A DNA stretch of 64,000 bases from Polyangiales bacterium (GTDB taxonomy: Bacteria > Myxococcota_A > Polyangia > Polyangiales > JADJQN01): positions 640,001 through 704,000 of the forward strand of contig CAXNJO010000002.1 of assembly GCA_964202905.1 (NCBI GenBank), written 5' to 3'. Below are positions 41,526-62,435 of this stretch, one piece after another. A program made the translations under genes and the position numbers. Position 1 is the stretch's first letter. Each line of letters begins with the position of its first letter. The notes under the pieces were generated by a model, which was not told the origin of the DNA, did not search any database, and saw nothing but the letters and a program-made list of their open reading frames with translations.

Positions 41526-41752
41526 CGATGCGTATAGCCCATCCGATCGCCCCTTCGGTCGTGCTCCGTGACGCTGCATCTTCTCCGAACGCTACGCGAG
41601 CGCGCCGCGGAGCACAATCTCGACGTCAATGCTGCTCTGCCGGAGGCGCGTCGACGTGCCTCGAGCGCCCACTTTCAGCGCATGTTCGCGCAGCGAACGC
41701 ACGTCTCCCTGACCGCGCTGTGCGCAGCCGCTCGACTCACGGTGCTCTCCGC

Positions 41753-42278: not shown

Positions 42279-43009
42279 GCGCGTAGGACATTCGAACCCC
42301 TGATCTGCGCCCGCTCCATGCACGGAGGAACGCTACGCGGCTCAGTTGCCCCCCACCGGAGCCCGCGCCCGTTTGCCCGCCGGCGCCGATCTGCCCGCCT
42401 GAGCGACCGACCGCACCCGTCTTTCGCGAATGCGACCACCTTCAGCATTGCGTCGAGACGATCCGCCACGGACACCCCGTCGGCGAAGGCTGACCCATGC
42501 CGCTCGACGACAACTACGCCCGCTGCGGTATCGCCACCGCACGCGTCGAAACGCCTGTCGAATGCGCCAACCTCGGAAGCTGCATCTTGTCCGTCCGCGG
42601 CGGCCTCAAGCCCGGACTCGGTTGCCCACACGAAGGCTCCGCCCTCTACGAAGAGTGCGGCCGCTGGCAGCCGCCTCGACCTCGCGCCGCACGACGCGGG
42701 AGACGAGCGGCGTCGCGCCAGACGACTCCGCCTACGGACGCGCGCTAGAGCCTCAACCGTTCAAGCCCGTAGTCTTCGCGCCGCGGGCTTTCGGCATTCG
42801 TGCCGCGCCGGCACCTCGGGGAGCACGTCGTCGAACAGGTGCGCGGCCAGTGCGCGCGCAACACGCGATGCAGCACAGTGTCCTCCGGACGCCGCCGCGC
42901 ATAGCCGTCCGCACGAGGTGCGTGAGCAAGAGCAGAACAAGCAGCGGCAACGGCAGACACCGCCGCTCATCGGCGCATCATCTGGCGCAGTGCTCAGCGT
43001 GCTCGGCGG
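42279..43009 (-). mobile_element. Non-autonomous IS91/ISCR-like element, copy 3
   Basis: Offset 2669 from copy 2; homology continues through the host junction to 43425. Confidence 0.75.
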
Positions 43010-43262
43010 CGTCAGTCGCTCGCGGCGCGCGAGGGCGAGCTCGGACGGGTGCGCGCGGACGAAGAGCGCCTCACGCGCGAGCTCGCGGAAGCGCGCAGCG
43101 ACGCGGCGAGTGCGGCCGCGCAGATCGCCGCCGCCGACGCGCGCCGCGCCGACGCCGAGCGCGACGTGAGCGAGCTGCGCCGCGAGCTCGAGCGGCTGCG
43201 CAACGCCGAGCCTGCGCCCGCGCCCGCGGGGCCCTGAGCCGCGCGGCGCGCTCGCTCGCGCG

Positions 43263-44683
43263 TCAATAGCCCCGATACGCGGGCCCGGCTTCCTTGCGGA
43301 GCGACATCACCGACACGAGCGCGGAACGATCCTTCGCGAGGTAGTGACGCGGGATCATCTGTTGGTGCAGCACCTTCCCGAGTCGCGTGAGGGAGAAGGT
43401 GCCGAGCACGGGATTCGACGTGCCGAGCCCGAGCGATTCCCAACGTGCGAGCAGCGTTCGGTGCGCGGTCATCGTCTCGGCGCCGTACTTCTTCGCGCGT
43501 GAGCGCACGCGCGTCATCGGCGAATACAGCAGATCGAACGTGACGTCGCGCGTCGCGCGCTGGTGCGCGTCGAGCCGCGCGAAGCGAGAGATGGGCAGAT
43601 TCCCCGCCTCGACCGCGTCGCAATAGGCGTGGATATCACGGTGATTGAGGTAGGTCGCGCGGTCTCCGATCGAGAAGCTCGAGTGTCCGAAGCCGTGATA
43701 GAGCACCTCGCCGTACGCGGGATTCACGCGCGAGGTCGCGAGCTCCCACAGCTCGCGGCGCACGTGGCGCGGCGACCGATAGAAGCGCGCCCCGAGCTCG
43801 CTCCAGCCGAGCTCGTCGGCGAAGACCTCGCGGGCGAGGGCGTCGCTGTGCGCCGTCTCGAGAAAGGGCGGCACACGCCGCGCGTCGCGGAAGGTGCGTG
43901 AGCGCGGGTCGTCGTGAAAGGGATACAGAAACACGCTGTCAACCGCTCCCGTGCGCGCGAGCTCGCGCGCCGCGGCGAGCGAGGCGGCGAAGGACGCGGG
44001 CGTCTGCCCTTCGAGCCCGGTCATCAGATCGATGTTGATGAAGTCGAATCCCGCGCTGCGGGCACGCGCGATGGCCTCGAAGACCTCGCGCAGCGGCTCG
44101 CCGTGGTGGTGAAAGGCGTAGAGCTCCGGGTCGAGCGTCTGCACGCCGAGGCTGATGCGGCGGAAGCCCGCGGCGACGAGCGCGTCGAGCTTGTCGCGCT
44201 CGGCGGTGATGGGCTTGGCCTCCGCGGTGCTCATCGTGCGGGGCGGGCCAAGCGCAGGAGCAGCGCGCCGAGGAAGCGCTCGAGCAGCCGCCGCGGGAGC
44301 GCGGTCGGCGTGCCGCCACCGAGGAAATACAACGCCGGGCGAAGATGCGGCGCGATCGCACGGACGCGCGCCATCTCGGTGTCGAGCGCATCGACGTAGC
44401 GCGCCATCAGCGCCTCGTTGTCCTTCGTCGTCAATTCGTAGTGGAAGCAGTAGCGGCAGCGATAGCGGCAGAAGCCGAAGTGGAAGTAGAAACCTGCGTT
44501 GCGAAAGTCGCCGACCGCCTCGGCGAGAAAGGCGCCATCCGTCGGCGCACCGCTCGCCGTGCGCTCGAGCGTCACGGCGGGCGGGTATGTGAGCTGATAA
44601 TCGTGCATGTCCGGTGCAGGCACGAGCGCGGGATCGGCCGCGAAGACCGCGCGCAGATCCGATTCGAGCTTCATCCGATTCAT
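43263..44683 (-). CDS. HemN-like (class C-type) radical SAM protein; frameshift near 44240
   Basis: FYFHFGFCRYRCRYC, YFLGGGTPT, RISLGVQT and INIDLMTGLEGQT; ATGA overlap with the upstream gene. Confidence 0.88.
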
Positions 44684-45459
44684 AGGAACCGCCTCGCTCT
44701 CGACATCGCGTCGAGCTCCGTCTGCATGGCCTCGCGCACGCGCGCGTCGACGTCTTCCACGCGGCCGTCGTGAGGATCGATCGGCGGCAGCACGCGCGTC
44801 ACGATCTTCGTCGGCAGCGGGAGATAGCCGGGGAGCGGGCCCACCCAGAAGCCCCACGGCACGCTCCACGTGAGCGGCAGCACCTTGATCCGGCGGGCGC
44901 TCGCCACCCCCAGCCGGCGCGCGAGGGCGCGCCCCTCTGCGAAGATGACGAGCGCCTCGTGTCCGCCGACGCTGACGACGGGTACGATCGGCACACCCGC
45001 CTCGCGCGCGAGTTCGACGTAGCCCGTGCGCCCCGCGAACTCGATGCGGCCGCGGCGCCAGAAGCTGCGGCACGCGTCGTGATCGCCGCCCGGATAGACG
45101 GTGACGGCACAGCCCGCGCGCAGCGCCGCGAGGCCGCGCGCGTGGCTTGCGCGCAGCGCCCCCATCTTCGCGACGAAGCGCGCGACGCGCGCGGGATACA
45201 CCGAAAACATCGCGTCGTGCGCGAGCGTGCACAGGGGCGTCGTGCGGCCCGCGGTGTGGTACGCGGCGACCCACACGAGCGTGTCGGGGATCATCGCGGC
45301 CCCCGAGTGGTTGCCGACGAAGAGCACGGGGCGATCGGGCACCGCCGCGAGACCGTGCACCTCCGCGCGAAACCAACATCGCAACCAGCGCGCGGTGCGC
45401 GGCGCGTGCCGCGCGACGTACGCGGGATCGTAGGCGCCGACCTCCCCGAACTCCGTCAT
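44680..45459 (-). CDS. Lysophospholipid acyltransferase family protein (PlsC/DGAT-like)
   Basis: VLFVGNHSG, VYPGGD, GRTGYVELAREAGVPIVPV and PLPTKI. Confidence 0.88.
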   Translation of the reverse strand: MTEFGEVGAYDPAYVARHAPRTARWLRCWFRAEVHGLAAVPDRPVLFVGNHSGAAMIPDTLVWVAAYHTAGRTTPLCTLAHDAMFSVYPARVARFVAKMGALRASHARGLAALRAGCAVTVYPGGDHDACRSFWRRGRIEFAGRTGYVELAREAGVPIVPVVSVGGHEALVIFAEGRALARRLGVASARRIKVLPLTWSVPWGFWVGPLPGYLPLPTKIVTRVLPPIDPHDGRVEDVDARVREAMQTELDAMSRARRFL

Positions 45460-45779
45460 CGGTAGAAGTCCAGCGGCGGCCAGTCGGGCAGCGTCGCGCA
45501 CCAGGCGGCGAAGCCGACGAGGGTGACGAAGCGCGGGTCGAGATCGAGCGGATCGGGATAGCGGAACTGCTCGGCGTCACCCGCGAGCTCGACGAGCCGC
45601 GCGTGGTAGCCGGGCCAGCTCGTGAGCGAGACGAGATAAGGCGCCCAGCGCGTCTCGCCGTCGACGACCCGGCGCGCCTCGTCGCGCAGCAGCGCCAGCC
45701 CGCCGGGGTGCGATTGCAGGAGTTGCAGGTCGTAACCGAGGAAGGCGTCCTCGTGATAGACGCTGAGCAGGTGCCGCAC
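45456..45779 (-). CDS. Hypothetical protein (a coupled ATG at 45815 is separated from it by an in-frame TAG)
   Basis: It fills the gap in a translationally coupled operon and has coding-like composition. Confidence 0.6.
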   Translation of the reverse strand: MRHLLSVYHEDAFLGYDLQLLQSHPGGLALLRDEARRVVDGETRWAPYLVSLTSWPGYHARLVELAGDAEQFRYPDPLDLDPRFVTLVGFAAWCATLPDWPPLDFYR

Positions 45780-45811
45780 GATCTACGCGGGCCGCTCCTC
45801 GCGACCGCCGC

Positions 45812-46834
45812 TCATCGCATCCCTCCCGCGTCATGGGCCAGGCCGCGCCGGACGACGCCCACGAGATCCGGCCCGAGCAGCGACGAGAACGGCACGCCGC
45901 ACGCCTCGACGAAGACCTGCACGACGCGCGGCGCGAAGCGCGTGAAGCTCGCGAACGCACGCGGCTCCCACGTACCCGGCAGCGTGGATTTGAGCGCATC
46001 CAGGCGGCGCAAGTAATCCACGTGCGAGAGGCGCCGTTCCATCCAGTCGAACCGCATCGCGAGCGCACGCGACGCGCCCTCCGGGTGCGCGAGCCGATGC
46101 AGCGGCGCGAAGCCCACCGCGAGCGACGTGCCCTCCGCAGCGAGCGTCGCGGAGAGCGTATGCACGACGCTCCACCACACGCCCCACTGTTTCGTCCTGC
46201 GAAAGCGCAGCACGTCCATTAGCCCCCCGCATACGACACCCTCTTTCCAGATGGCGTTGATGACCGCGAAGCCAAGGATCGATTCGCCCTGCGCGAGGAG
46301 GAACATGCGCCGCGTTCCGTCGTCGACACTCGACCAGGGTCGATTGAGAAACACGATCTCGCGACCGACATCCGTCCGATCGATGGACTCGCGCGAGATG
46401 GCATCGAGTTGCTCACGCAGGCCTGCATCGAGTCCCGCGAGCGACACTTCGCGCAGCGCGAAGTCGTGCCGCGTCGCGTGGCGGAGGGCGCCGCGCACCG
46501 CCTTCGGCGGCTCGCGGAGCAACGCATCCGCGTCGAGCACGCGATCCTGCCCCATCGCTGCGGTGTGCAACCCTTCCCGCGCGCACGCCTCGGCGAACGG
46601 CGCACGCAGATAGAAGAGCATTGGTTTCCGCGCGACGCGCAGGAAGCGCCGCAACATCTCCGCGCGATCTCCGGGCGCGCACCAGGGCCCGCCGAGCGTC
46701 GCGTGCACGTCGCCGACGCGCCGATACGCCCAGCAGCCGAACGACGTCTCGAAGTGCGCGAGCCCCGGCGCGAGCGTCGCGCAGGCGATCAGATCGCCGT
46801 CGCCGAAGCGCTCGACGAACGCGCGTGCGCCCAT
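45812..46834 (-). CDS. DUF2156 / MprF C-terminal-like aminoacyl-tRNA-dependent transferase domain protein
   Basis: WAYRRVGDVHATLGGPWCAP, VRGALRHATR, ILGFAVINAI and MDVLRFR resemble the LPG-synthase C-terminal GNAT-like domain. Confidence 0.6.
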   Translation of the reverse strand: MGARAFVERFGDGDLIACATLAPGLAHFETSFGCWAYRRVGDVHATLGGPWCAPGDRAEMLRRFLRVARKPMLFYLRAPFAEACAREGLHTAAMGQDRVLDADALLREPPKAVRGALRHATRHDFALREVSLAGLDAGLREQLDAISRESIDRTDVGREIVFLNRPWSSVDDGTRRMFLLAQGESILGFAVINAIWKEGVVCGGLMDVLRFRRTKQWGVWWSVVHTLSATLAAEGTSLAVGFAPLHRLAHPEGASRALAMRFDWMERRLSHVDYLRRLDALKSTLPGTWEPRAFASFTRFAPRVVQVFVEACGVPFSSLLGPDLVGVVRRGLAHDAGGMR

Positions 46835-47769
46835 CAATCCGGCTCCGCGAGCACCTTCCGCACGATGTCGTCCTTCGAGACGAAGACGGGATGGAGCTCG
46901 CCGAGGTCGTAGTGATCGCCGAGCTCGAAGAGGCCGCCGCACACATCGTTGAGCGTGCACGCACCGCAGACATCCGCCTTCGGGTGCGTGAAGTCGGTCT
47001 GCCGGATCGTCCCCTTGTCGTCGAGGAAGTGCACGATGCGCTCCTCGCCCTTCACGATCTTGCGCGTCTCCGTGGAGCAGTGCGCGAACTCGGTCATGTA
47101 ACAGAGCGGCACGCGCTCGACGCGGAAAGAGCGGCCCGTGCGGTGCAGGTGGCGCATCGCGCGCGCGAGCGAGAGCTCGAAGTCGGCGAGGCGGTGCGCG
47201 GTGTCGCGGTTCGTCTCGGCGCGGCCCATCGACGGGTCGAGATTGTTCCACACGAAGTGGCGCAGGAAGGGGAAGCGCGCCGTCCAGCGCTTCACGTTCT
47301 CGTCGAGGTGATCGGCGTTGAACTTGTTGATGACGGTGTTGATGTTCACCGTCGCGCCGACGCGGCCGAGGTTCTCGAGCGCGTCCATCGCGAGCGCGTG
47401 GCTGCCTTTGACGCCCGTGAGGAAGTCCTCGAGGTCGGGGCGGCACGAGTGGATGCTCACGTGGAAGTGGCGCAGCCCCGCGTCGAGGTACGACTCGGCG
47501 ACGCCCGGCTTCGCGAGTCGCGAGCCGTTCGTGATCATGCGGACGTGCAGCCCCTTGGCGCAGGCGTAGCGCGTGATCTCGGGGATCAGCTCCGAGAGCG
47601 AGGGCTCACCGCCGGTGAGGATGATCCCGAAATAGCCGCGCGCGACGAAGTCGTCGACCTGTCGCTGCGCCGTCTCGAGGTCGAGCATGTAGCCCGACGA
47701 GGGATTCGAGCAGAAGCGGCAGTACTGGTTGCAGTGCCGCACGATCTGCATGTAACCGAGGTTCGCCAT
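46834..47769 (-). CDS. Radical SAM protein, HxsC-like
   Basis: CNQYCRFC, LTGGEP and ITNG; C-terminal VPLCY...CGACTLNDVCGG. Confidence 0.9.
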   Translation of the reverse strand: MANLGYMQIVRHCNQYCRFCSNPSSGYMLDLETAQRQVDDFVARGYFGIILTGGEPSLSELIPEITRYACAKGLHVRMITNGSRLAKPGVAESYLDAGLRHFHVSIHSCRPDLEDFLTGVKGSHALAMDALENLGRVGATVNINTVINKFNADHLDENVKRWTARFPFLRHFVWNNLDPSMGRAETNRDTAHRLADFELSLARAMRHLHRTGRSFRVERVPLCYMTEFAHCSTETRKIVKGEERIVHFLDDKGTIRQTDFTHPKADVCGACTLNDVCGGLFELGDHYDLGELHPVFVSKDDIVRKVLAEPD

Positions 47770-47787
47770 GCTGCTCCGCGGACGGTA

Positions 47788-48930
47788 TCACCCGCGCTCG
47801 TCGTCGTCGCCGCGAACGTCGTCGCTCTGCGCGGGCGCGTCGCCCTCGAAGAGCGCCGGAAAGAGCGAGCGCAACGCCTCGCCGCTGAGCCGCTCACCGC
47901 GACCGACCTCGGCGACGGCCGGCACGCTGCGCCCGAGCATCGGCAACGCACGCCGCACCTTCGCGGGGGAAGGCTCGCTCGCCTCCGCACGGCGCGGCGC
48001 CCGCTCACCCGGCCCGACGAAGGCCGACGCGAGCGGATGCGCGCGCGTCTCCGCGGCCGGCGCGACGGCGGTGTCGCGCGGCGCGAGCTCGTCGCCGTCG
48101 AAGCGCGCGAGGTAGGCCACGTCGACGCCGGGGCACAGAGGCCGTAGCGCGCACGCGTCGCAAGCAGGCGCGAAGGCGCGCACGCCGTCGCCGAGCGCGT
48201 CGCCGGGGATCGCGTGGGCGCCATAGGGCCCGAGCAGGCACAGCGGCGCGCCTGCGACGAAGGCCGTCAGCCCGCGCGCGCGCGCCGCAGCGAGGGCGCG
48301 CACGGCGAAGGGCAGCGCGAGGCCGAGGCGCGGGTACACGCGATCGAAGCGCTCCTCCGCGCGCCCGGCGACGACGGGCACGGCGATGCACCAGGCCGCG
48401 ACGCCGCGGGCCACGACGAGCGCCGCGAGCGCGTCGAGCGCGCGGTAGTTCGAACGGGTGAGCACGGTCGCGACGACGACCTCGAGTCCGGCGGCGCGCG
48501 CCGCGGCGAGCGCGCGCAGCACGTCGTCGAAGCTGCCTGCGCGCCCCGTGTGGTAGTCGTGCACGGCCGCCTCGGCGCCCAGCAACGTCAGGTGCACGTC
48601 GGTGAGCCCTTGCTGCGCCAGCCGCTGCCAGCGCGATGCATCCATGAGATTCGACGCATTGCTCTGCACGCCGATCCGCGTGAAACCGAGCGTGCGCGCG
48701 GCGTCGACGCGCCCCTCGAGCGACGCGTCGAGCCCCGGCTCACCGCCGACGAAGCTCACCTCGTCGTGGGTCGCGCGGAGCGACGCGAGGGCCGCGCGCG
48801 CACCGTCCGCGTCGAGCGACTCGCGCGGCGCGAGTCCGTCCTGATCGCAGAACACGCACGCGTTCGTGCACGCCTGCGTGAGCGTGACGAGCCCGCGAGA
48901 CCGCGGCGCCGGAGGTGAGGAACTCGACAC
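47788..48930 (-). CDS. Radical SAM protein, HxsC-like; start uncertain
   Basis: CTNACVFC, FVGGEP and VQSN; APLCLL...CDACALRPLCPG. Confidence 0.88.
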   Translation of the reverse strand: MSSSSPPAPRSRGLVTLTQACTNACVFCDQDGLAPRESLDADGARAALASLRATHDEVSFVGGEPGLDASLEGRVDAARTLGFTRIGVQSNASNLMDASRWQRLAQQGLTDVHLTLLGAEAAVHDYHTGRAGSFDDVLRALAAARAAGLEVVVATVLTRSNYRALDALAALVVARGVAAWCIAVPVVAGRAEERFDRVYPRLGLALPFAVRALAAARARGLTAFVAGAPLCLLGPYGAHAIPGDALGDGVRAFAPACDACALRPLCPGVDVAYLARFDGDELAPRDTAVAPAAETRAHPLASAFVGPGERAPRRAEASEPSPAKVRRALPMLGRSVPAVAEVGRGERLSGEALRSLFPALFEGDAPAQSDDVRGDDDERG

Positions 48931-48997
48931 GCACCGCGACTCTACGGGGGCGCGACGCGCACGGTCAACGCGACGCGCTGCTACGCTGCGCCTCCGC

Positions 48998-49924
48998 GTG
49001 GCGCTGCTCGACGTCATCCTCGGCTACGACTGCAACCTCGCTTGCGACTACTGCACGATCACGCCCGCGATGCGCGCGCGGGCGCTGACGACGGAGCAGG
49101 TCGTGCGCGAGCTCCGCGCGGGGCGGGACGCGGGCTTCGACGCCGTCTCGCTGACGGGCGGAGAGCCGACCATCCGCCGCGATCTGCTCGGCCTCGTGCG
49201 GGCCGCGCGGCAGCTCGGCTATGCGTCGATCAAGGTGCAATCGAACGGCCTGCTCTTCGCGCACGCGCCCAACGTGCAGCGCCTCGTCGAGGCGGGCGCG
49301 ACGCTGCTGCACGTCTCCATCCACACGCACGAGGCCACGCGCTACGACGCGCTCGTGCGCCGCGAGGGCAGCCATCCGCAGATGGTCGCGGGGCTGCGAA
49401 ACGCCGTCGCGACGGGCGCCGAGGTCGTCGCCGACCTCATCCTGAAGGCCGACACCCACGCCGCGCTGCCCGACGCGCTGCGGTGGGTGCACGCGCAGGG
49501 CGTGCGCGCCGCGCACCTCTGGTTCGTCTCCCTCACGGACGGAAACCGCGACAACGTCGCGTCGCTGCCCCGCATGGGCGAGACGCTGCCGGCGGTGCAC
49601 GAGGCGCTCGCGTACGCGCGCGAGTCCGGCATGGACGTGCGCTCGCTGCACATCCCGCGTTGCCTCCTCGGCGCCGATCACGGACACGCGTGGGACCCGG
49701 GCAGCGTGCGCGTGCGCGTCGTGACGCCGGAGGCGACCTTCGACCTCGCCGACAGCAAGCTCGCGGGCAGCGTGCACGTCGCGGCGTGCGAGGGCTGCAC
49801 GTTCCGCGCGGTGTGCCCCGGGATCCGCCGCGACTACCTCGAACACGTGGGCGACGCCGAGTTCGCCGCTGCGCGCGGACAGCCGGCGACCCATGCCGGA
49901 CGCGTGCGTCTGCCCGTGGCGTGA
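48998..49924 (+). CDS. Radical SAM protein, HxsC-like
   Basis: CNLACDYC, LTGGEPT and VQSNG; IPRCLL...CEGCTFRAVCPG. Confidence 0.9.
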   Translation: MALLDVILGYDCNLACDYCTITPAMRARALTTEQVVRELRAGRDAGFDAVSLTGGEPTIRRDLLGLVRAARQLGYASIKVQSNGLLFAHAPNVQRLVEAGATLLHVSIHTHEATRYDALVRREGSHPQMVAGLRNAVATGAEVVADLILKADTHAALPDALRWVHAQGVRAAHLWFVSLTDGNRDNVASLPRMGETLPAVHEALAYARESGMDVRSLHIPRCLLGADHGHAWDPGSVRVRVVTPEATFDLADSKLAGSVHVAACEGCTFRAVCPGIRRDYLEHVGDAEFAAARGQPATHAGRVRLPVA

Positions 49925-50001
49925 CGCGCGGCGCTGCGCTGCGATCGGCGACCGCGAGCGGTGACCGAGATCGGCGACCGCGAGCGGCGATGAATGGCGG
50001 T

Positions 50002-52369
50002 TCAGCGCGCGAGCGGCAGGCGGAACGGCACGGGCCGCACGCGGTCTCCCTCGTCGACGAGCCAGGGCGGCTCGGGTACGTCCTCGAGCTCGTAGAAGCC
50101 CCCGCAGAAGACGCGGTGCGGGCACGGGCCGCATTCTTCTTTGTGCACGCGCCGCTCCGCGAGGTAACCCGCGAGGTTCACGTCCTCGTTGTTCACGAAG
50201 ATCATGTGGCGGGAGAGCTTCGCGATGTCCCCGGCGAGGTAGCGCTCGTAGCCGGGCATGAAGCAGAACGGGAGGTTGATGACCTGGAAGCGGATGCGGT
50301 CCTTCCACGCGTCGATCACGCGCATCGCGATCTCCGCGGCCTCGCGCGTGTCGGGGTTCACCCAGCGCGTCGCGCGGCCGAAGGGCGTGAGGAACTGGAG
50401 GTTCAACCACCGCAGCCCGAGGTCGAAACAGAGCTGCGCGAGCGCCTCGAGCTTGCGGTGGTTCCCCTTCGTGAGGGTCACGTTCATCCCGAGCTCGAGC
50501 GTGTCTGGCGCGTGGCGCAGGCAGTTGCGGATGCCCGCGATCGTCTGGTCGAAGGCCTCGGCGACGCCGACCTGCTGCGCGTGCGTCTGCGCGTCGGGGC
50601 CATGCACGCTGAAGAGCAGCGTGGTCACGCCGCTCGTCGCGAGCTTCCGCGCGAAGTCGTCGTACGCGCAGAGCCGGCCGTTGGTCGTGACGTTGACGCG
50701 CTCGTAGCCGATCGCGCGCGCGTAGCGGACGAGCGGCACCAGCTCGGGGTTGAGCGTCGGCTCGCCACCGTCGAAGTCGACCATGGCGCACGCCCGGCGC
50801 GGCGGTACTTCGCGAGGTGCTCGCGCTGGCGCGTCGGGTGACCGTCGACCTGCGTGCGCGTGCCGACCGCACAGAACGTGCAGTGGTTGTTGCACACGTA
50901 GGTGACGTTCATGATCACCTTCTGCGGGCCCTCGCGTGGCGCGCAGCCGCTGGTCGAACGTCCACCGGAAGCGGCGCGAGCGCCTCGGGCGTGACGGCTC
51001 ATGTCGGGCTGGCGCGGGCACGCGTCTGGAAGCGCCGGCCCCCAGTCGTCGCACGACGGGGAGCGCGCGGCCGTGCGCGAGCTGCCGTGCCCGGCAGCGG
51101 CGTCGCGAACTGCACCGCGGGGAACGCGCCGTAGCGCTCGTAGAGATCGATGCGCGACGCGCGAGCGTCGCGTTGATCTCCTCGGCGCTCTCGCCGGGCA
51201 GCCCGATGATCCAGTGGATCAGCAGCGGCGACGCCCGCGGCCTGTGCGCGTTCTGCGCGGCGGCGTACGATGGCACGCGAGGTCGAGCCGCTTCTTCACG
51301 ACCTCCGTCACGACGCGCTGCGACGCCGCTCTCGGCGCTCACGCTCACCGTCGTCGACGCGGCCCGCGCATGCGCCCGAAGTGGCGCGGGCTCGAGGTAG
51401 TCGGCGCGCATGCCGTTCGGCACGTCGAAGCGCACGTCGAGCGCGTCGACGGCGTCGAGCACGGCTTCGAAGTGGCGCTCGCTCACGTTGACGAGCTCGT
51501 CGAGGACCTCGAGGCGCGTCGCCCCGTGCTACGCGACCACGAGCTGCTCGAGGTACGCGCGCAGGCGCGCCTCCGGAGTAGCGGCGCTGCGTCTTCGGGG
51601 CGCCGCGGCAGCGCGCTCCGGGTTCGAGCGAGCAGTGGACGCACGTGAACGGACAGCCGCGCGAGGTGACGAGCGGCAGCGTGCGACCGTCGATCGGGAA
51701 GGCCCAGCGCGCGCGTCCGAGGTTCTGGACCGTGCGCGCGCAGAAGGCGCTCGTACGCGGCCGAGATCGACGAGATCCCACGCGGGGAACGGCAGCGTGT
51801 CGAGCGAGGGGCGACGCGCCGCGGTGCGCGCCACAACGGACGCTCGCCGCGCGCGACGAAGGCCTCGAGCGAGCGCGGGCACCGTCACCTCCGCCTCGTA
51901 CTTCACCCACGCGGAGGCCTCCGGATAGGCCGCAAACAGCGCCTCTGCGGCGGCACTCGACGTAGTGCTGCCCGGACTGGTAGCAGTCCGCGAGCAGGCG
52001 CGGCGCCTCCGGCCACGCGTCGCGCAGGGCGGCGAGCACGTCGCCGAGCACGTCGTCCCGCGCGGGCGGGCGGTGGAACGGCGTCAGCGCGACGACGACG
52101 AGCGCGGGTGCCTCCGCGCCGAGCGCGGCGCGACACGCGGCGATCGTGTCGACCACGGGCGCGCCGAGGTGAAAGCGGCCGTCGTCCCGCGGCGCGAGCG
52201 TCGAGGAGGGCAAGGCGAAGGCATCGACGAGCGCGACGGGATGCCCCGCCTCGCGGAGCACCGCCGCGAGCTGCACGGCGCCGAGGTCGGAAAAATAAGG
52301 GTAATCGATGAAGTCGCGCGCGATGCTGGTGGGCGGGTGCACCACGAGGACGCGAGCATGGGGCGACAT
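50002..52369 (-). CDS. Cobalamin-binding radical SAM protein apparently fused to a second HxsC-like radical SAM domain; multiple frameshifts
   Basis: B12-domain-like start VLVVHPP...LGAVQLAAVLREAGHPVALVDA, then TSRGCPFTCVHC, VPNGMRAD and IIGLPGE. These are followed by VCNNHCTFC, FDGGEPT, TTNG and LPFCFM...CGPCPHRVFCGG. Confidence 0.8.
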
Positions 52370-52404
52370 CACCGACAGTCTATCGGATTGCCCGCGCCGC
52401 GAAT

Positions 52405-54282: not shown

Positions 54283-54391
54283 TCACGGCGCCGCGCCCGG
54301 CCCGCGTGCGGTCGCTGCGGATCGGCCGCGCACCGCGTCGCTGGCCGCGGCCGCGCGCCGCGCGATCCGCGACGCAGTTCGGCCACCGCGG

Positions 54392-55480
54392 TCAATACAC
54401 GCCGTTGGAGAGCTCGACGATGTAGCCCGCACACGCGAGCGGCGCGGACGGCTTGCGACGCACGCGCACGAAGTAGTCGGCGCTCTGATCGCCGCAGACG
54501 TTCGCCCCCGGGACCGGCGACGGCGCGCACGGGCACTCGCCCGTCGAGCCCGGGCCAGTGCCGGAGAGGAAATCCGTGAAGAACGAGAAGTCCTGATAGC
54601 CCGTGTCCGCGCAGCCCATCGGGAGCACGCCGCACCCGCCGCGGAACACGGTGAACTCGAACGCTGAATCGGGATTCATCAGGAACTGCACGCGCACGTG
54701 GAGCGCGTCGCAGCTCGTGTCTGCGGTGTCCACCCCGCGGAAGCGGTACCAGACCTCGCGCGCCGCCGGGAGGGCGTTGCCCGTGACCAGCTGCATCTGC
54801 CCCGTGTCGGCGAGCTCGCCGAGGTCCTGCGCACCGGCGCAATCCGCCGCGACTCCGTCGGCCGGGACCGCGGCGCACTCGCAGCCCGTGTCGGCGCGCG
54901 CGTCGAGATCGAACTGCCCCGGCGGACAACCGCACGCGCCCGAGAGGCAGATCCCCTCACCGGGCGCGCAGAGCACGGAGGGCGCGGCGTCGTCGGTGCC
55001 GCCGCTGCAGTCGTCGTCGAGCGCGTTGCAGACCTCCGGTCGCCCGGGCGCGATCGCGGGGTTCGTCTCGTCGCAGTCCGTCGCCGCGGTCACGCCGTCG
55101 CCGTCGATGTCGCGGTCCCGCGGCACGCAGTAGCGCGCGCGGCAGAGGTCGGCGGGGTCCGGGCAGCCGCCCGCCGGCGTGCAGGCGTCGTACGGCACGC
55201 ACGTCCCGCGCTCGCAGACCTCGAACCCCATGCAGACGACCCCGCGGCACGGATCCGCGGGTCCCATGTCCACCGGCGAGGCCGCGTCGTCTGCGGCGTC
55301 CCGCGACGCGTCGCGCGGCCCCCCTTCGGCCAACGCCATGTCGCGTGGCGCACCGCCCGCATCGCCGCCGTCCCCGGCGCCGCTCGCGCACGCCGCCAGG
55401 CCGGTGAGGGCCGCGACGAGCAGACCGAGGGCCCCTCGACGTGGGGACGAAGCCGCGGGGTGCAGTGCGCGTGTCCTCAT
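54392..55480 (-). CDS. Cys-rich lipoprotein with DxDGDG...DCD...EVCN-DDDC (MopE-like putative metal-binding) motif
   Basis: Lipobox GLAAC and [37 protein letters not shown]. Confidence 0.8.
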
Positions 55481-55562
55481 GCTGCCGACGATACCCCGCT
55501 GCGCGGAGCGCCGGCAAACATGTCACGTGGGAGTCGGAAGCCGTGCCCCGCTCCCGGACGGA

Positions 55563-55853
55563 TCACCAGCTGCCGTGCGAACCGTGCGAGCCGTGCGAGC
55601 CGTGCGAGCCGTGCGAGCCGTGCGAGCCGTGCGAGCCGTGCGAGCCGTGCGAGCCGTGCGAGCAGTGCTGCCCGCTTCGCTGCGCGTCGCCGGGATCACC
55701 CTTGCCCCCCTCGTCCGCCGCAGCGAGCGCGCGCGCCGAGACCTCGTGCTGGGTGTCGGAGAGGGTTCCCGTCACGTCGGCGCGGAAAGAAGGGAGGGAC
55801 TCGCCGTCCTCCGCCGAATCGTCGTCGTTGCCGTTGCGTCCGGGTCCTGCCAT
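55563..55853 (-). CDS. hxsA: His-Xaa-Ser repeat precursor peptide
   Basis: 96 aa with an acidic leader followed by HCS(HGS)10W. A GGAG RBS lies 7 nt before the ATG, and the gene sits directly downstream of the HxsB-like rSAM. Confidence 0.9.
55569..55667. repeat. 9-bp tandem repeat (CGAGCCGTG) x11 encoding the His-Xaa-Ser core on the minus strand
   Basis: Counted directly: 8 perfect units and 3 variant units. Confidence 0.97.
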
Positions 55854-55928
55854 GTCGATGCTCCGCGAAGGTGGGGGGGCAATTGTAGGTCGAGCGAGGC
55901 CGCGCTGTCACGCGGTCGCGAAAATAAC

Positions 55929-57443
55929 TCAGGGCGCGGTGGCGGCGCCCTGCAGGAAGTGGTCGCGGCTGCGAACGGTCGTCCACCGCTGCAGCACCGC
56001 CATCGTCGCCGGGTCGCCCTCCGCGAGCTTGCCGAAGAGGTAGTCCTGGATGCCCTTGTGCACCGCGCACAAGGAGCTGAGGCGCATCGATCCCCAGATG
56101 TGGCCGAGCGCTTTGTGGCTGTGCACGGGCGCGACGCCGCAGTACGGGTTGTACGTGCAATCCACGCAGTCCGGCTGGCTGTCGCGCTGCGACGCGATCA
56201 CGAGGGCGCGCACCGTCGCGTGGCCCGTGATGTCGCGGTAACGGCTCGTGCGGACGTCGCCGAGGAGGAAGGTGTCGTCCCCGGTCTCGTGCAGCATGCG
56301 GCCCTCGTCGCACGTGAAGATGCGGCCGTCGTAGCTGTAGGCGAGCTGACCGATGCCCGCGCCGCCCGGGCTGCGGATGTCGAGGAAGTTCGGGTCCTCG
56401 CCCGCGAGGATCTTGGTGAGGAAGATCGCGGCGTAACGCTCGAGAATCTGCACGCCCTGCTGGTTCAGCTGGAGCATGTAGTCGGTCGCCTGCCGGTAGA
56501 AGTCGAGGTACTCGCTGCGCGGGTACTCGACGCGCGCGCCGGTCTTCTCGACGAAGCCGAACGGGTCGATCGGGCGCAGGAAGAGGGCCTTGCAGCCGAG
56601 GGCGACGTAGGTGTCGACGACCTCCTTCCAGCGGGGGAGCGTTTCGCGCGTCGTCGTGAGCAGCGCCTCGACGTGGTAGAGCGTCGGGTCGAGGCCCATC
56701 TCGGCGTAGGCCTCGTTGATCCGGGCGATCCAGCGCGTCGCGGCCTTGTGCGACGAGAGCCCCGGCAGCTTTCGCTGCTTGTCGTGCAGGTGCTCGGGGC
56801 CGTCGATGCTCGTGCAGATCTGCACCTTGTGCGCGAGCAGGAAGGCGAGCTTCTCCTCGTCCATCAGGGAGAGGTTCGAGACCATCGTGAACTCGAGCTG
56901 CTTGCCGACGTCTTCGTTCTTCTGCTTCGCGTAGGTGATCGCGTGCTTGACGACCTCGAAGTTCACGAGGGGCTCGCCGCCTTGGAACTCGATCGTGATC
57001 GACGGGCTGGTCGAGCGGAGGATGAAGTCGATCGCGCGCTCGGCCGTCTCGCGCGACATGTCCGTGTGCACGGCCTCCATGTCGGCACGCGACGCGTGGC
57101 AGTACACGCACGTCTCGTTGCAGCGGAGCGTGACGACGAGGATGTGGAGGTTCGGGCCGAGGTGGAGGAAGGACTTCCGCGCGCGCACGCGGGCGATGGC
57201 CTTCTGCACGTCGTACTCGGCGCGGACGAAGTTCGCGTCGCGGAGGCGCGCGTGAAGCGGCTCGTCCGCCTTCACCTCGCCGCGCGCGAAGCGGCCGAAC
57301 TCGTCGTCCGAGAGGAGCAGCCAGTTCCCCTCGAGGTTCGTGATCAGGATCTTCTCGCCGATGCGCCGATGCCGGAAAAACGCCGGATAGCGCGTGTCGA
57401 GGCGGGCGCCGGGGCCGACGAGCGCGCGGAGATCGACCGTCAC
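55929..57443 (-). CDS. hxsB: His-Xaa-Ser system radical SAM/SPASM maturase HxsB
   Basis: [51 protein letters not shown] and [15 protein letters not shown] overlap with the upstream gene; lies between hxsD-like genes and the HxS peptide. Confidence 0.9.
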
Positions 57444-57661
57444 GACCGCCCCCCACGCTCGCGGATCGTCGTGCCGAGCGCGTAGTTGGCGAGCTCGCGC
57501 GCGATCTGCGTCGCGCGGGCCTCCGACTTCGCCGTCACGCGCACCACCCAGTGGGTCGGCTCCTCGCGCAGCTCGAACTCCGCGAAGCGCGCGTAGGTCT
57601 TCACGGCCGCGTCGACGGCCGTCCCCGCGTAGAGCTCGCGGTGCAGGCGCAGCTCGGTCAC
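57440..57661 (-). CDS. Small HxsD-like protein
   Basis: LHRELYAGTAVDAAVKTY...ELANYAL parallels the neighbouring HxsD; GTGA-coupled on both sides. Confidence 0.72.
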   Translation of the reverse strand: MTELRLHRELYAGTAVDAAVKTYARFAEFELREEPTHWVVRVTAKSEARATQIARELANYALGTTIRERGGRS

Positions 57662-58167
57662 GGCTCGCCCCCGGGCTCATCGCCGGACGGTGCGGCGGCG
57701 CCCTCGGCGGGCGCGACCTTCTTTTTGTACTTCTCTTCCCAGCTCATCGCGATGCCGAGCGGATCCTCGAAGGACTCGTCGCCGAAGTCGAACCCGGCGA
57801 GGTCGTCGAGCGAGGGCGCGCCCATGGCCGCGGAGATCGCCTGCGACGTGACCATCTCGATGACGGCGCGGTTGTCCTGCGCGATCTGCTGGCGCCACGC
57901 CGCCGAGAGGAGCTCGTTCGAGAACTCGCCCACGAACGCGCGCAGCACGGCTTCGTCCGCGCCCGCTTTGCGGGGCGCGAGCGTCACGCGGACCGTGTGC
58001 GCATCGGGCTTGTCGAGCAGCACGAAGCAGCGGTCGAGGAAGACGTACGCGGACGCGTAGACCGCTGACAGCGGGTAGAGCGTGAGGTCGACGCGGAGGT
58101 GCACCGCGCCGGACACGAGGTCGGCGGTGACGAGCTCCGAAGGGAGGGCTTCGAGGGGAGAGGACAT
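57658..58167 (-). CDS. hxsD: His-Xaa-Ser system protein HxsD with acidic C-terminal extension
   Basis: VDLTLYPLSAVYASAYVFLDRCFVLL...FVGEFSNELL...DDLAGFDFGDESFEDPLGIAMSWEEKY; located upstream of hxsB. Confidence 0.82.
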   Translation of the reverse strand: MSSPLEALPSELVTADLVSGAVHLRVDLTLYPLSAVYASAYVFLDRCFVLLDKPDAHTVRVTLAPRKAGADEAVLRAFVGEFSNELLSAAWRQQIAQDNRAVIEMVTSQAISAAMGAPSLDDLAGFDFGDESFEDPLGIAMSWEEKYKKKVAPAEGAAAPSGDEPGGEP

Positions 58168-58215
58168 GGGGATGGAACTCCAGGGCCGTGCGGATCGGCC
58201 CGACGACGGGCAGGG

Positions 58216-60534
58216 TCAGCGCGTGAGGGTGAGCTGGTATTGCGCGGCGCTCGTCCCGCTGGTGGTGCGGAAAACACGAACGTAGATGGGGCTAGGCCAG
58301 GTGACGTTGCGGCTCGACCACTGACGGACCCCGGGGATCGACTGGTCGTCGACGAACGCCCACTCTTGCAGGCTCGTGGCGGTGCCGCCGCTGCCGCAGC
58401 CGAGGGGCGCGGCGGGGCAGCCGCTGGTCACCTCGAAGCGGAACGCGGAGCCGTCGTTGCGCGTGAACCGGATGCGCGGCGTGCCGCCGCCGTTGGCGCC
58501 GAGGGGCGGGAAGGATGCGAAGAAGTAGTCGCTGGCGCCCACGCTCGCGATGCTGCCCGCGAGGGTGTTGACCGCGCCGCCGACGCTGATGGAGCCGAGG
58601 GAGGTCGCGGTGCCGCACGACGCGCCGTTGCCCTCGTCGACGACCTCGCAGCCGTTCGCGTAGGTGCCGTCGACGTCGACCGCGTTCGCGCTGCACGCGC
58701 CGATCGAGCACCCCGCGCCGCCGCCACAGACCGTGGACGACACATTCGCCGTGGCCGGACAGAGCGACGCGATGGGCGCGTTGTCCGTGACGCCGTCGCA
58801 GTTGTCGTCGACGCCGTTGCACGCCTCGAAGGCGCTCATGCCCGCCATGCACATCACCGGCACGCCCGCGCTGCACATCGCGACGCTGACGCTGCAGAGG
58901 CCGAGGCCGCAGGTCTGCGTGCCCGCGGGCGCATCGGTGCACGCGCCCGCCGTCATGCCGTTGCAGGTCCCGACCGTCGGGCTCTGACAGACGTCGTTGC
59001 AATCGATTTGCACTTCGGTCCCGGCCGGACGCGAGGGGCACAAGTCCGCGGGCGCGAGGCAGGCGCCGATCCCGTTGCAGGCCGCGAGGTCGCCATCGAC
59101 GGCCGCGCGACGCCGACAGGCGCCGAGGCCATCGAAGCCGCCGTAGTAGTCGGAGCACGAGAAGCCGGGGCACTCTCCGTCCGGATCGCGGCCGAGCGCG
59201 ACGGGCGTGCACGTCCCGCGCGTGTCCGGGAGGTCGCAGCGCTCGCACTGCCCCGAGCAGGCCGACGTGCAGCAGACGCCGTCCACGCAGGAATTGCCGT
59301 CCTGACAGTCCTGCACACGCGCGCATCCGCCGCCCGGCGGCCGGTCGAGCGCGCAGACGCCGAGCTCGCAGTGCGCGGACGCGACGCACTCGGCGTCGGC
59401 CACGCACGCGGTCGGGCACGTCGGCGCGGACTGGGCGACCTCGCCCGTGCAGTAGACGGGCAGGTAGAGCCCGCAATCGCGCGCGAGGACCGAGGGGACG
59501 CACGCCGAGTCGTCGGGGACACCCGCGATCACGACGCAGGAGTTCGACTCGCAGGCCGTGTCACCGCGCGTGCCCTGGCAGGTCGACGCGGAGTCGCACG
59601 CCGCGCCCGTGCCGCCGCCGCAGTCCATCGGCGTGCGGCAGCACTGGCCCGAGTCGCAGCAGTAGCCGTTGTCGCAGTGGCCGGACGCGCAGTCGGAGTC
59701 CTCGTCGCACGTGCCGCCGTTCGACTCGTCGTTGAGGCAGGTCATGCCGTCGCAGTGCGCGGCCGCGATGCAGCGCTCGTCGCCCGTGTTCGGGCCCGTC
59801 GAGGGGCAGTCGAGCGCGCAGCGGCTGCCGAGCCCGCCGCCGAGCTCGCAGCTGAACAGCCCGCACGACGTGAGCGTGCCGCTCGTGCACGCGGCGTCCA
59901 CGCACATCGCGCTGCGGATGTCCTCGTAGGTGCCGGGCATCGCGACGTTGGGCCGACACACGCCCGAGACGCAGTCCGTCATGGTCCCATCGGTCGTCCC
60001 GTCGCAGTCGTCGTCCGTGCCGTTGCAGCGCTCGGGCTCGCCGGGGTTCACGTCGGCGCTCGCGTCGTCGCAGTCGCGACCCATGCAACCGACGCCCTGA
60101 CCGTAGGCGTCACGGTCCTCGTCGACGCAACAGGTCGCGCCGAGCGGCGCGCAGACGTACTCGTCGACCTCGAGGGCCGAGCTCAGCGTGCAGCCGAAGT
60201 TGCCGGGGCAGGAGGGCAGATCGGGGATGCAGCCCGGCAGGCATGCACGACCGCCCGTCGCGAGCGCGGCGCAGAACGAACCGGGGTTGCAGTCACCGTT
60301 CGTCTCGCACGCCTCGCAGGTGCCGGCGCGCGTGGTCGGCCCCATGTCCACCCCGGCATCGGCGCCGAGATCCGCGCCGCCGTCCATCTCGCCGAGGTCG
60401 GCCATGCCACCGTCCGCCCCGCCGTCGCCGGGCCGCACCGGCGGCGCCGCATTGCTGGCGCACGCGCCGAGCGAGAGCAGCGCGGCCGAGAGCAGACCCC
60501 GCACGAGCGGTTTATTGAGGACGGGCATCCGCAT
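58216..60534 (-). CDS. Large Cys-rich lipoprotein with MopE-like and Dickkopf-like Cys repeats
   Basis: Lipobox SLGAC; DEDRDAYG...DCDD...ERCNGTDDDCDG, CDEDSDCASGHC and EACNGVDDNCDG. Confidence 0.82.
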   Translation of the reverse strand: MRMPVLNKPLVRGLLSAALLSLGACASNAAPPVRPGDGGADGGMADLGEMDGGADLGADAGVDMGPTTRAGTCEACETNGDCNPGSFCAALATGGRACLPGCIPDLPSCPGNFGCTLSSALEVDEYVCAPLGATCCVDEDRDAYGQGVGCMGRDCDDASADVNPGEPERCNGTDDDCDGTTDGTMTDCVSGVCRPNVAMPGTYEDIRSAMCVDAACTSGTLTSCGLFSCELGGGLGSRCALDCPSTGPNTGDERCIAAAHCDGMTCLNDESNGGTCDEDSDCASGHCDNGYCCDSGQCCRTPMDCGGGTGAACDSASTCQGTRGDTACESNSCVVIAGVPDDSACVPSVLARDCGLYLPVYCTGEVAQSAPTCPTACVADAECVASAHCELGVCALDRPPGGGCARVQDCQDGNSCVDGVCCTSACSGQCERCDLPDTRGTCTPVALGRDPDGECPGFSCSDYYGGFDGLGACRRRAAVDGDLAACNGIGACLAPADLCPSRPAGTEVQIDCNDVCQSPTVGTCNGMTAGACTDAPAGTQTCGLGLCSVSVAMCSAGVPVMCMAGMSAFEACNGVDDNCDGVTDNAPIASLCPATANVSSTVCGGGAGCSIGACSANAVDVDGTYANGCEVVDEGNGASCGTATSLGSISVGGAVNTLAGSIASVGASDYFFASFPPLGANGGGTPRIRFTRNDGSAFRFEVTSGCPAAPLGCGSGGTATSLQEWAFVDDQSIPGVRQWSSRNVTWPSPIYVRVFRTTSGTSAAQYQLTLTR

Positions 60535-60587
60535 CGGCTCCTCCGCTTTCGAGACTTCGTCGATTAACGTAACAGTCCGCGCGCGCG

Positions 60588-62435
60588 CTAGACAAGGATC
60601 ACGTGCGCGCGCTTCCAGCGGATCAACCACTGATTCGAGGTCGCAGGACCGACCTCGCGCCGCTCGAGGACGTCGAGCGGGATCGCCAGCGCATCGGCCG
60701 CACGCGCGACGTGCGCCGCGGCCGCCCCGGCGTCGTCGTTGCGGTGATGCTCGAAGCCCGCGCGCGACCGCTCGGCGCGGCGGGCGTGGGCGGGCGTACG
60801 CGCGAGACCGAACGCGACGTTGTCGACGACGGTGATCGTGCCACCCGGCCGCAGCGCGGGGAGCAACTGCGAGAGCGCCGCGTCCGGATCGGCGAGGTGG
60901 TTCCAGCTGCGGAGCACGAGGACGTGATCGAACGACGCAGGCTCGAGCGCCGCCGTCTCCGCGGTGCCCTCGCGCACCTCGCCCCAGGGTCGACGGACGC
61001 GGAGCCGGGCGCACGCGGCGGCGTCCGGCTCGAGGCCGACCCACGCGATCCGGCCCTCTCGCGCGAGCGGCGCGAGCACGTCGTCGTAGGGCCCCTCGCC
61101 GCAGCCGACGTCGAGCACGCGCCCGCCGAGGGTCGAGAGCAGCGCGCGCACGAGGGCGTCGTCACGGCCGAACACATCCTCGAGGCGCGGCTCGAAGAGC
61201 CCCGTGCACGCATCCCGCGCGCTGCAACCCGTGCAGAGCGCGCTGCGCGAGAGCTGCACGAGATCCCGCGCGAAATCGTCGGGCGCGGCCTTGCGGGAGA
61301 CGTCCACGTACACCTGTCCGAGCCTGTGCTTGAGGTGCTCGAGCTCGACGTCCGCGAAGTCGCGCGTCTCGGTGCGGTAGCGCGCGACGCGCCCCTGGTG
61401 GCGCACGAAGAGGTGGCGACCGCGATCCCACGGCGTGACGCCCTGCGCGCCGTCGCGCAGCGGACAATGCGCGGGATCGGCCTCCGTCGGCACGAGCGCC
61501 TCGAGCACGTAGTGGAACGAGTTCGAGCGCGCGCGCGGCGCGGGCGGTCGCAGCTCGTCGGCGCCGAAGGCCTCGAGATAGCCGCGAAAGAGGCCCGGAC
61601 ACGGCCCCCGCAGCGGGCAGTCGCTGCAGACCTCTTCGGGCTGGATCTTCGCGACGTCGTCGACGGGGAAGAAGTCCGGCTCGCCGACCTCGACCATCGT
61701 CGCGAAGCGATCGGTGCGGAGATCGTCGTAGTCACCCTCGAGCCCCGGCAACAGGCAGAGCGGGAGCCCGTCGTGCGTGAAATGCGGCCCGGCGGCCCCG
61801 CGCGCGCGCACGCCATCACGACCATGGAAGATGGCATCTCTGACCCGCGAAGCGACGTGCGCGACGCGCGGCACGACGTGCTCGAAGAGCTTCTCGCCGC
61901 CGCCCTTCGGTTGCGTCATCGAGAACTTCAGCGTCAGCCGCTCGAGGGGGAGCAGCAGATCGACGAGCGGGCGGAGGTGATCGACGTTCTGGCGCGTGAC
62001 GACGCAGTTGATCGTCAGCTCGATCCCGGGCCGCGCGTGCACGTTGCGGATCGCGCGGAGCGCCTCGTCGAAGCCGTCCGCGCGCACGAGCGCGTTGTGC
62101 ACGCGCGCGCTCCCCGCGTGCAGCGACATGTACACGTAGCGCAGCCGCGCGGCGATCAGTTGCTCGAGCACGTCGTCGTAGGCGAGCAGCCGCCCGTTCG
62201 TGACGAGGCCGAGGTCCATGTCGAGCGACGCGACGTGCGTGGCCCAGCGCATCAGCTCGGGGCGGATCGTCACCTCGCCGCCCGAGAGCACGACCATCGA
62301 GTGCCCGAGCTCCTTCGCGCGGCGGATCTTGCGGTGGGTCTCGGACTCGTCGCCCTCGATGTGGCGCACGTCGAGCGTGTGGCAGAACGTGCAGTGCTCG
62401 TTGCAGCCGTAGCCGACCTTGATGAGCGCTTTCAT
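60588..62435 (-). CDS. Radical SAM (HxsC-like) protein fused to class I SAM-dependent methyltransferase
   Basis: CNEHCTFC, LSGGE, VTNG and LPLCLL...CSDCPLRGPCPG. The C-terminal part has VLDVGCGEG, SFDHVL and LRPGGTI. Confidence 0.9.
   Translation of the reverse strand: MKALIKVGYGCNEHCTFCHTLDVRHIEGDESETHRKIRRAKELGHSMVVLSGGEVTIRPELMRWATHVASLDMDLGLVTNGRLLAYDDVLEQLIAARLRYVYMSLHAGSARVHNALVRADGFDEALRAIRNVHARPGIELTINCVVTRQNVDHLRPLVDLLLPLERLTLKFSMTQPKGGGEKLFEHVVPRVAHVASRVRDAIFHGRDGVRARGAAGPHFTHDGLPLCLLPGLEGDYDDLRTDRFATMVEVGEPDFFPVDDVAKIQPEEVCSDCPLRGPCPGLFRGYLEAFGADELRPPAPRARSNSFHYVLEALVPTEADPAHCPLRDGAQGVTPWDRGRHLFVRHQGRVARYRTETRDFADVELEHLKHRLGQVYVDVSRKAAPDDFARDLVQLSRSALCTGCSARDACTGLFEPRLEDVFGRDDALVRALLSTLGGRVLDVGCGEGPYDDVLAPLAREGRIAWVGLEPDAAACARLRVRRPWGEVREGTAETAALEPASFDHVLVLRSWNHLADPDAALSQLLPALRPGGTITVVDNVAFGLARTPAHARRAERSRAGFEHHRNDDAGAAAAHVARAADALAIPLDVLERREVGPATSNQWLIRWKRAHVILV

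Follow-up and report, generated by a model that had tools for sequence, protein, structure and literature searches.

The canonical HXS system, HxsD-HxsB-HxsC-HxsA, is described by Li et al. 2026 (PMC13128918) as an anti-phage system. According to that study, HxsB, HxsC and HxsD mature HxsA in E. coli, with a change of +8 Da (+C/-4H) on SHRSS, and HxsC binds HxsD. The product is periplasmic, and in the model put forward its basic repeats bind DNA. The +8 Da change is chemically undefined and reconstitution was unsuccessful. The systems surveyed there were 99.7% from Pseudomonadota and more than 99.8% were four-gene systems; the string 'myxo' was not found in the main text or in three supplements. 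Two further papers report that within Hxx motifs HtkB and HaaB join His-C2 to the third residue (PMC11499958), and that HExxH enzymes either cleave the backbone or hydroxylate His carried by a cyclophane scaffold (PMC12636437). Here we analysed a stretch of 64,000 nucleotides from a Polyangiales genome (G000 C2:640001-704000, hereafter the window; G000 comprises 5.68 Mb in 19 contigs, with 73% GC). An initial annotation had placed a His-Xaa-Ser (Hxs) cluster for a peptide that is made on ribosomes and modified after translation (RiPP) at positions 43263-62435 and had regarded the Hxs family as lacking a characterised member, a statement superseded by the anti-phage activity and +8 Da change reported for the canonical system (PMC13128918). 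Judged by its sequences, the window system is a member of the catalogued HxsA4 branch, outside canonical HXS. On balance, and with moderate confidence, we take it to be the central part of an old Hxs branch in the Myxococcota, a multi-step RiPP pathway whose product would act at the cell envelope.

To compare loci, species-representative genomes were searched with an HxsB query, which confirmed 288 relatives. The best 80 of these 288, every record of which is titled Myxococcota or deltaproteobacterial, were used as loci, and locus counts cover at most 10 kb either side of hxsB. In the window, hxsD, hxsB and hxsA follow one another on the minus strand in the canonical order. HxsB (55929..57443, its start codon placed by inference from the overlap with the upstream stop) scored 551.9 bits on TIGR03978 (NCBIfam cut-off 370), and its relatives in the 80 loci are 63-77% identical. 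On models of cyclophane synthases (GrrM/OscB, FxsB, XyeB, YhhB, AmcB) it reached 43-54 bits against cut-offs of 310-450. HxsD (169 aa, 57658..58167; TIGR03976, 55.1 against 50; 71/80 loci) passes its model, with the canonical LLNDYxLRE motif unconserved. A second, HxsD-like small protein of 73 aa (57440..57661, minus strand; NF038315, 79.3 against 41) occurs at 65/80 loci, and the 96-aa precursor HxsA4 (55563..55853, minus strand) scored 59.3 on NF038313 (cut-off 55). Models above cut-off therefore confirm the HxsB, the two HxsD-like genes and the HxS precursor that had been read from the sequence. The GC content across 43-62 kb (0.69-0.75) is the same as in the remaining window.

The resemblance to canonical HXS lies in HxsB and HxsD above cut-off, the gene order, the tandem HxS repeats and an architecture of the HxsC type that includes a second Cys cluster motif. 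In contrast to the canonical system, no gene here passes the HxsC cut-off, at least eleven HxsC-like domains stand in place of one, and there is a second HxsD-like protein. The precursor is only 96 aa long, with pure HGS repeats and neither basic residues, a signal peptide nor a peptidoglycan-binding domain, and HExxH, methyltransferase, Tat-signal and PPC-domain proteins are added. The NCBIfam branch models (HxsA4, HxsC4, HxsD-like) are passed by the window precursor, the small protein and an enzyme on contig C1, described below. These models name only three proteins, whereas the other ten HxsC-like domains, the Tat-signal protein and the lipoprotein domain pass none. The branch had been proposed as undescribed; it was already catalogued by these models, yet we found no paper on the HxsA4/HxsC4 myxobacterial branch or using those names (subscription journals were largely uncovered) and no characterised product. 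Like triceptides (the three-residue cyclophane RiPPs; HtkB, HaaB, ChlB/ChlH), the system has tandem His-x-x motifs, a radical S-adenosylmethionine (SAM) maturase and an aKG-HExxH enzyme (TIGR04267). Unlike them, it uses maturases of the HxsB and HxsC types and far more enzymes per precursor, and any crosslink would be assigned by analogy.

The precursor consists of an acidic 62-aa leader and a core, HCS(HGS)10W, of eleven H-x-S units, with eleven His in 34 residues and no Lys or Arg. Chance origin of the repeat is excluded because this is the sole run of at least four HxS units in the six frames of G000; the one other match has three units. The 50 precursors recovered from the 80 loci carry 6-21 units each. 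The first unit is HCS in 39, HAS in 5, HGS in 5 and HSS in 1, and the inner units are HGS in 651/651. Forty-seven of the 50 end in W, two run off the contig and one reads through. Their leaders keep the motif LP.F...L...QREISD.A. In a distant Myxococcota lineage (L129-L133), an HCS(HGS)nW core is preceded, in 5/5 cases, by a related leader whose hydrophobic segment is signal-like, which suggests that the product is exported. The core can also be read as Gly-X-Y, with a Pfam Collagen score (26.2) just under the cut-off of 27.2. The distant lineage often has two sub-cut-off HxsC4 relatives per genome. Other arrangements were also seen: two HxsA4 precursor genes in tandem in one genome (L083:17982-18716); a second, divergent expanded cluster with its own HxsB and HExxH enzyme and a precursor ending in HGQW (G037 C54, L114-L116); and, in the same order (L124, G018), a canonical-type HxsA with signal peptide, HRS/HSS/HYS repeats and C-terminal domain, together with a canonical-type HxsC. 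Six Nannocystis loci (L008-L013) have hxsD, the hxsD-like gene and hxsB with neither precursor nor HxsC-like genes within 10 kb.

Around the precursor, all eight predicted radical SAM genes and nine CX3CX2C motifs were present: one motif in each of six intact genes, two in a double-domain gene and one in a HemN-like gene, the last two genes being broken in the assembly. Setting the HemN-like gene aside, for reasons given below, leaves seven radical SAM genes. The HxsC-like domains lie in a 615-aa fusion to a class I methyltransferase (60588..62435, minus strand; profile matches, 48/80 loci), a 625-aa enzyme with a C-terminal extension (52405..54282, plus strand), the double-domain gene (50002..52369, minus strand), a protein of about 310 aa whose start was inferred from orthologues (48998..49924, plus strand; 18/80 loci), a gene whose longest open reading frame (ORF) has 409 aa, the true start probably lying later (47788..49017, minus strand; 22/80 loci), and a 311-aa enzyme (46834..47769, minus strand). 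All six domains have HxsC4 or HxsC among their best-scoring models, and the earlier assignment as HxsC-like stands; none reaches either cut-off, with 55-90 bits on HxsC (TIGR03977, cut-off 267.9, about 268) and 55-107 on HxsC4 (NF038332, cut-off 500). At other loci, HxsC scores rose to 129.5 bits, still below cut-off. Each HxsC-like domain carries a C-terminal CxxC-x5-C motif beside CX3CX2C. Pfam also confirmed the methyltransferase.

In a quick tree of 95 domains, each paralogue family with several rows formed its own clade (97-100% support in the Shimodaira-Hasegawa-like approximate likelihood ratio test, SH-aLRT), most of them spanning several named families. Orthologues of one paralogue are 59-86% identical. 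The 311-aa enzyme, the most conserved HxsC-like paralogue, grouped with one canonical-type HxsC (SH-aLRT 98), a placement that carries a long-branch warning. By sequence and genome comparison, the HxsC-like domains, at least eleven per genome, are old separate lineages that have retained both iron-sulfur motifs.

The double-domain gene, a class-B-like domain followed by an HxsC-like domain, is spread over several frames in the window; in relatives, a single ORF of about 780 aa carries two motifs. Contigs from other sequencing runs lack the single extra base at all six places listed (X1 and X4) or at five of the six (X3); the three listed places covered by X2, which may be the source sample, read as in the window. 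Because the other runs' contigs lack the extra bases, assembly error is the likeliest cause of the frameshifts in this gene. The class-B-like domain had been called a B12-dependent radical SAM domain. A resemblance to class B models remains, with weak matches to ApyD, HpnJ, B12-rSAM and AprD4 that are all below cut-off and 6FD2 as the best PDB sequence match, but the B12-binding family PF02310 gave no match on an intact orthologue.

We next asked how the components are distributed over 61 genomes of the same order, using the 625-aa HxsC-like enzyme as marker (present in 20, not in 41). The Tat-signal protein and the C-terminal domain of the lipoproteins (E<=1e-15, 1-4 copies) were found in 20/20 marker-positive genomes, the 311-aa enzyme in 19/20, the methyltransferase fusion and an HxsB of at least 60% identity in 18/20 each, and HxsC4, the aKG-HExxH enzyme and the class-B-like domain in 17/20 each, the broken copy of G000 counting as one miss for the last. 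All of these were found in 0/41 of the other genomes; more distant HxsB proteins occur in G018, G034 and G047. HxsA4 matches were obtained in 20/20 positives (18 above cut-off) and 5/41 others, above cut-off only in G034 and G047. Of the 20 positives, as many as 10 supplied rows to the alignment behind the count for the Tat-signal protein and as many as 9 to that for the lipoprotein domain, so it is the zeros that carry weight. In five negative genomes searched at E<=0.001, the Tat-signal protein gave no match. The 310-aa and 409-aa-ORF paralogues were profiled in five genomes each, and both were found in 2/3 positive and 0/2 negative genomes. Four families (f1, f9, f16 and f22) hold both states, and in these all components switch together. 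Among new genomes, five with HxsC4 contained the Tat-signal protein (5/5), the lipoprotein domain (4/5) and the methyltransferase fusion (4/5, two partial); of five without HxsC4, only G148, which has HxsB (63%) and the marker, had both the Tat-signal protein and the lipoprotein domain. Across the phylum, HxsC4 was above cut-off in 19/301 genomes and below it in 21 more. The co-occurrence of the extra radical SAM genes with hxsA, hxsB and hxsD in other genomes, suggested earlier as a check, was thus found.

In trees of HxsB and the methyltransferase fusion from the 45 loci with both, family labels changed 4 and 5 times, compared to a minimum of 4 and a shuffled mean of 11.1 for the 22 labelled rows. 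Since paralogue clades span families and family-label changes are few, the sequence data fit a long history of vertical descent and repeated loss and not one of recent duplication; on this evidence, the Hxs paralogues are ancient and follow host families.

Families adjoining hxsB in relatives but missing from the window were sought elsewhere in G000. HxsC4 proper is encoded at G000 C1:32344-33387 (NF038332, 618.4 against 500) and the aKG-HExxH enzyme at G000 C3:121756-123090 (TIGR04267, 81.6 against 40). A double HxsC-like gene and a further HxsC-like gene lie at G000 C1:20.6-24.5 kb, and another HxsC-like gene at G000 C2:124867-126180; the membership of these three extra genes comes only from the neighbourhood of hxsB in relatives (13, 7 and 2 loci). 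In total, G000 has eleven HxsC-like domains in ten genes, five of the domains outside the window, and its Hxs system is spread over at least three further genomic places. The Tat-signal protein (twin-arginine translocation; G000 C1:22528-23088) is a recurrent neighbour of hxsB and, at 150-215 aa, the commonest non-enzyme neighbour after HxsD (26 genomes or loci). By a pattern test, 119/130 full-length homologues have the twin arginines and a hydrophobic stretch, and 777 representatives were found at E<=1e-10. It matched nothing in Pfam or NCBIfam. Its predicted structure (predicted local distance difference test, pLDDT, 79.8) had no Foldseek match at E<=0.001 and no Atlas match above 0.75, the best VIA match having Z 6.3. 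A predicted complex with the precursor scored 0.01 and was counted neither for nor against an interaction. The idea that its domain recurs in the radical SAM extensions was dropped, as matches appeared only at E>=0.07.

Beside the second Hxs locus on C1 (L101:4428-16495) we observed genes for a di-haem MauG-like peroxidase, a JmjC cupin, a further radical SAM enzyme, a 344-aa unknown protein and a 738-aa membrane protein weakly matching the Tat-protein domain. In other genomes (L088, L107 and L108), variable tailoring genes in the cluster encode a PhyH dioxygenase, B12-binding radical SAM enzymes, a glycosyltransferase, a DegT aminotransferase-methyltransferase and UbiA, as well as a tryptophan halogenase close to a precursor with a terminal Trp.

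The two Cys-rich lipoproteins noted in the window, of 772 aa with 80 Cys (58216..60534) and of 362 aa (54392..55480), both on the minus strand, end in a common 155-aa domain that is carried by proteins whose open frames measure 200 to more than 3000 aa. The model of this domain (pLDDT 80.2) matched collagenase collagen-binding/PPC domains in Foldseek at E 2.6e-4 to 9.7e-4 with 11-13% identity, the best match having probability 1.0 and a query-length TM-score (TMq) of 0.44. Among these, the clostridial and bacillus collagenase domains (PDB 4HPK and 5SV5; E 2.6e-4 and 5.7e-4) resemble the predicted beta-sandwich but are only 12-13% identical, with TM-scores of 0.44-0.48 by query length, and Pfam PPC gave no match in 21 members of the family. 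Binding of the Gly-X-Y core by this predicted domain would be speculation. The larger lipoprotein has MopE-type repeats (PF11617); since such repeats occur in 62 ORFs of G000, we rejected them as a sign of copper function.

From these data we propose a pathway in which the leader would recruit HxsB and complexes of HxsC-like proteins with HxsD, which would oxidatively crosslink the repeats. By analogy with triceptides, a bond from the His ring to the third residue is the likeliest crosslink. The HExxH enzyme would then hydroxylate the peptide and may also cut it, and the methyltransferase and class-B-like domains would add carbons. The paralogues could serve separate steps or positions (the first HCS, the inner units, the terminal HGSW) or be subunits of one complex. 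The rigid, His-rich mature peptide would leave the cell, possibly with the Tat-signal protein, and be retained on its surface by the PPC-domain lipoproteins to form a standing part of the envelope, whether barrier, adhesin or metal binder. We infer both the chemistry and the role of this product, a crosslinked, hydroxylated and probably methylated (HGS)n peptide.

Several observations weigh against this pathway. A hydrophobic or signal segment was found in 0/23 precursor leaders (Kyte-Doolittle, KD, > 1.6), which have no signal peptide. No dedicated transporter or peptidase family recurs in at least four genomes near the loci; the initial annotation, which saw neither in the cluster, holds to this extent but was incomplete, as the aKG-HExxH enzyme and the Tat-signal protein are encoded elsewhere. 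In two genomes, G034 (93% complete) and G047, an HxsA4 precursor is accompanied by a more distant HxsB but by no accessory set, so a minimal version exists and not every enzyme is required for a (HGS)n peptide. None of the six window domains is HxsC proper, because all fall below the cut-offs, and the class-B-like domain is only possibly cobalamin-binding. The 310-aa paralogue was not found in the complete genome G045, and weak relatives of the lipoprotein domain appeared in 2/5 negative genomes (E 1e-9 and 6e-6). Many of the 61 genomes are drafts, and kin are non-independent samples.

Some of these points bear on what the product does. As in E. coli HXS, the matured His-rich peptide might block the entry of phage DNA as an effector in the envelope, export and anchoring being left to separate proteins; this is compatible with the pathway above, differs from it only in naming the role, and seems to us possible yet doubtful. 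True HxsB, HxsD and HxS repeats are present, extracytoplasmic partners co-occur, presence is patchy within families, and the only tested family member is anti-phage and periplasmic (PMC13128918). However, a core lacking Lys and Arg is unlike the basic, DNA-binding repeats of the E. coli model, and the precursor has neither signal peptide nor peptidoglycan-binding domain. The genes are mostly single-copy and scattered and track host families, like inherited chromosomal genes, and no defence family recurs among the neighbours, and PADLOC gave only generic radical SAM, methyltransferase and ATPase matches. It is quite improbable, in our view, that a dedicated machine of a dozen non-redundant radical SAM domains turns the (Gly-Ser-His)n core into a rod that is rigid and collagen-like or poly-cyclophane, which a Tat carrier of a new family would help to export and collagen-binding-like domains on several large surface proteins would capture, as an envelope fibre or barrier passed down from early Myxococcota. 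If so, the four-gene anti-phage HXS would be a simpler relative of an envelope fibre system.

Other readings concern what the enzymes act upon. Eleven enzymes would find few distinct sites on a homopolymeric core, the minimal genomes G034 and G047 manage with HxsA4 and HxsB, and some clusters have variable oxygenases, glycosyltransferases, a halogenase and an aminotransferase. Hence only HxsB, HxsD and one HxsC-like enzyme might act on the peptide, the other paralogues modifying the Tat or PPC proteins, a small molecule or a lipid. We consider this unlikely: all paralogues retain the HxsC architecture, they were never found without HxsA4 in the 61 genomes, and no second precursor family recurs near the loci. 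Little credence is given to a cut-up peptide whose small modified pieces, in place of a surface polymer, act as a metallophore or peptide-derived cofactor. The eleven His in 34 residues, an invariant terminal W with a variable repeat number, strong enzyme conservation (59-86% within one paralogue) and the ability of HExxH enzymes to cleave backbones (PMC12636437) would suit this role, but no family of TonB-dependent receptors, ABC importers or cofactor-dependent enzymes recurs near the loci, and the MopE-type repeats are unspecific. Two frameshifted genes and repeated, presumably transposase-like DNA at the region border could suggest a local pile-up of recent duplicates and pseudogenes with no joint function. 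This is highly improbable and indeed already refuted by co-distribution, by the other runs' contigs, which lack the extra bases, and by paralogues that form separate clades across five families with orthologues intact elsewhere.

This branch is also of use beyond the locus itself. Because the branch precursor is short and soluble-looking, with a separable leader and a uniform core, HxsB and HxsC chemistry becomes directly testable. A dozen conserved, non-redundant radical SAM domains per precursor, far more than the one or two of the RiPP systems compared, might prove a source of several new reactions. With the co-inherited Tat-signal protein and surface domain, export and the site of action can begin to be approached, and the named loci include a cultured host, Enhygromyxa salina DSM 15201 (L041).

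Adjoining the last HxsC-like gene in the window, at 43263..46834 on the minus strand, are genes for an LPG_synthase_C protein (PF09924), a 107-aa ORF, an acyltransferase (PF01553) and the frameshifted HemN-like radical SAM enzyme. The acyl/aminoacyl-type transferases announced for the region are thus present, as is the methyltransferase domain, but they do not belong to the Hxs system. The HemN-like gene was found in 0/60 other genomes, including 19 with an Hxs system. Together with the acyltransferase gene it was absent from all 80 hxsB loci (0/80), a result that is weak alone as loci reach only 10 kb from hxsB. A metagenome scan gave nine loci with the HemN-like gene, accompanied by the 107-aa ORF in 7/9, LPG_synthase_C in 7/9 and all or part of the acyltransferase in 7/9. 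An Hxs gene or HxS repeat was present at 0/9 of them, two being shorter than 4 kb. We therefore rejected the HemN-like and acyltransferase genes as Hxs members and treat them as a separate four-gene cassette, possibly an undescribed lipid-modification module. With the acyltransferase cassette separated from the Hxs set, the suggestion that the peptide is lipidated has no support left. The cassette is 60-84% conserved in other high-GC contigs (L134-L142), sometimes beside apparent ferritin-like and desaturase genes. Nearby, at 23640-28448 and 39605-43452, the window holds three to four near-identical repeats (92-99.6%) of up to 1.6 kb, with remnants that look transposase-like by sequence type and not by a family match. 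The 3' end of the HemN-like gene recurs in these repeats, and related DNA occurs on six other contigs.

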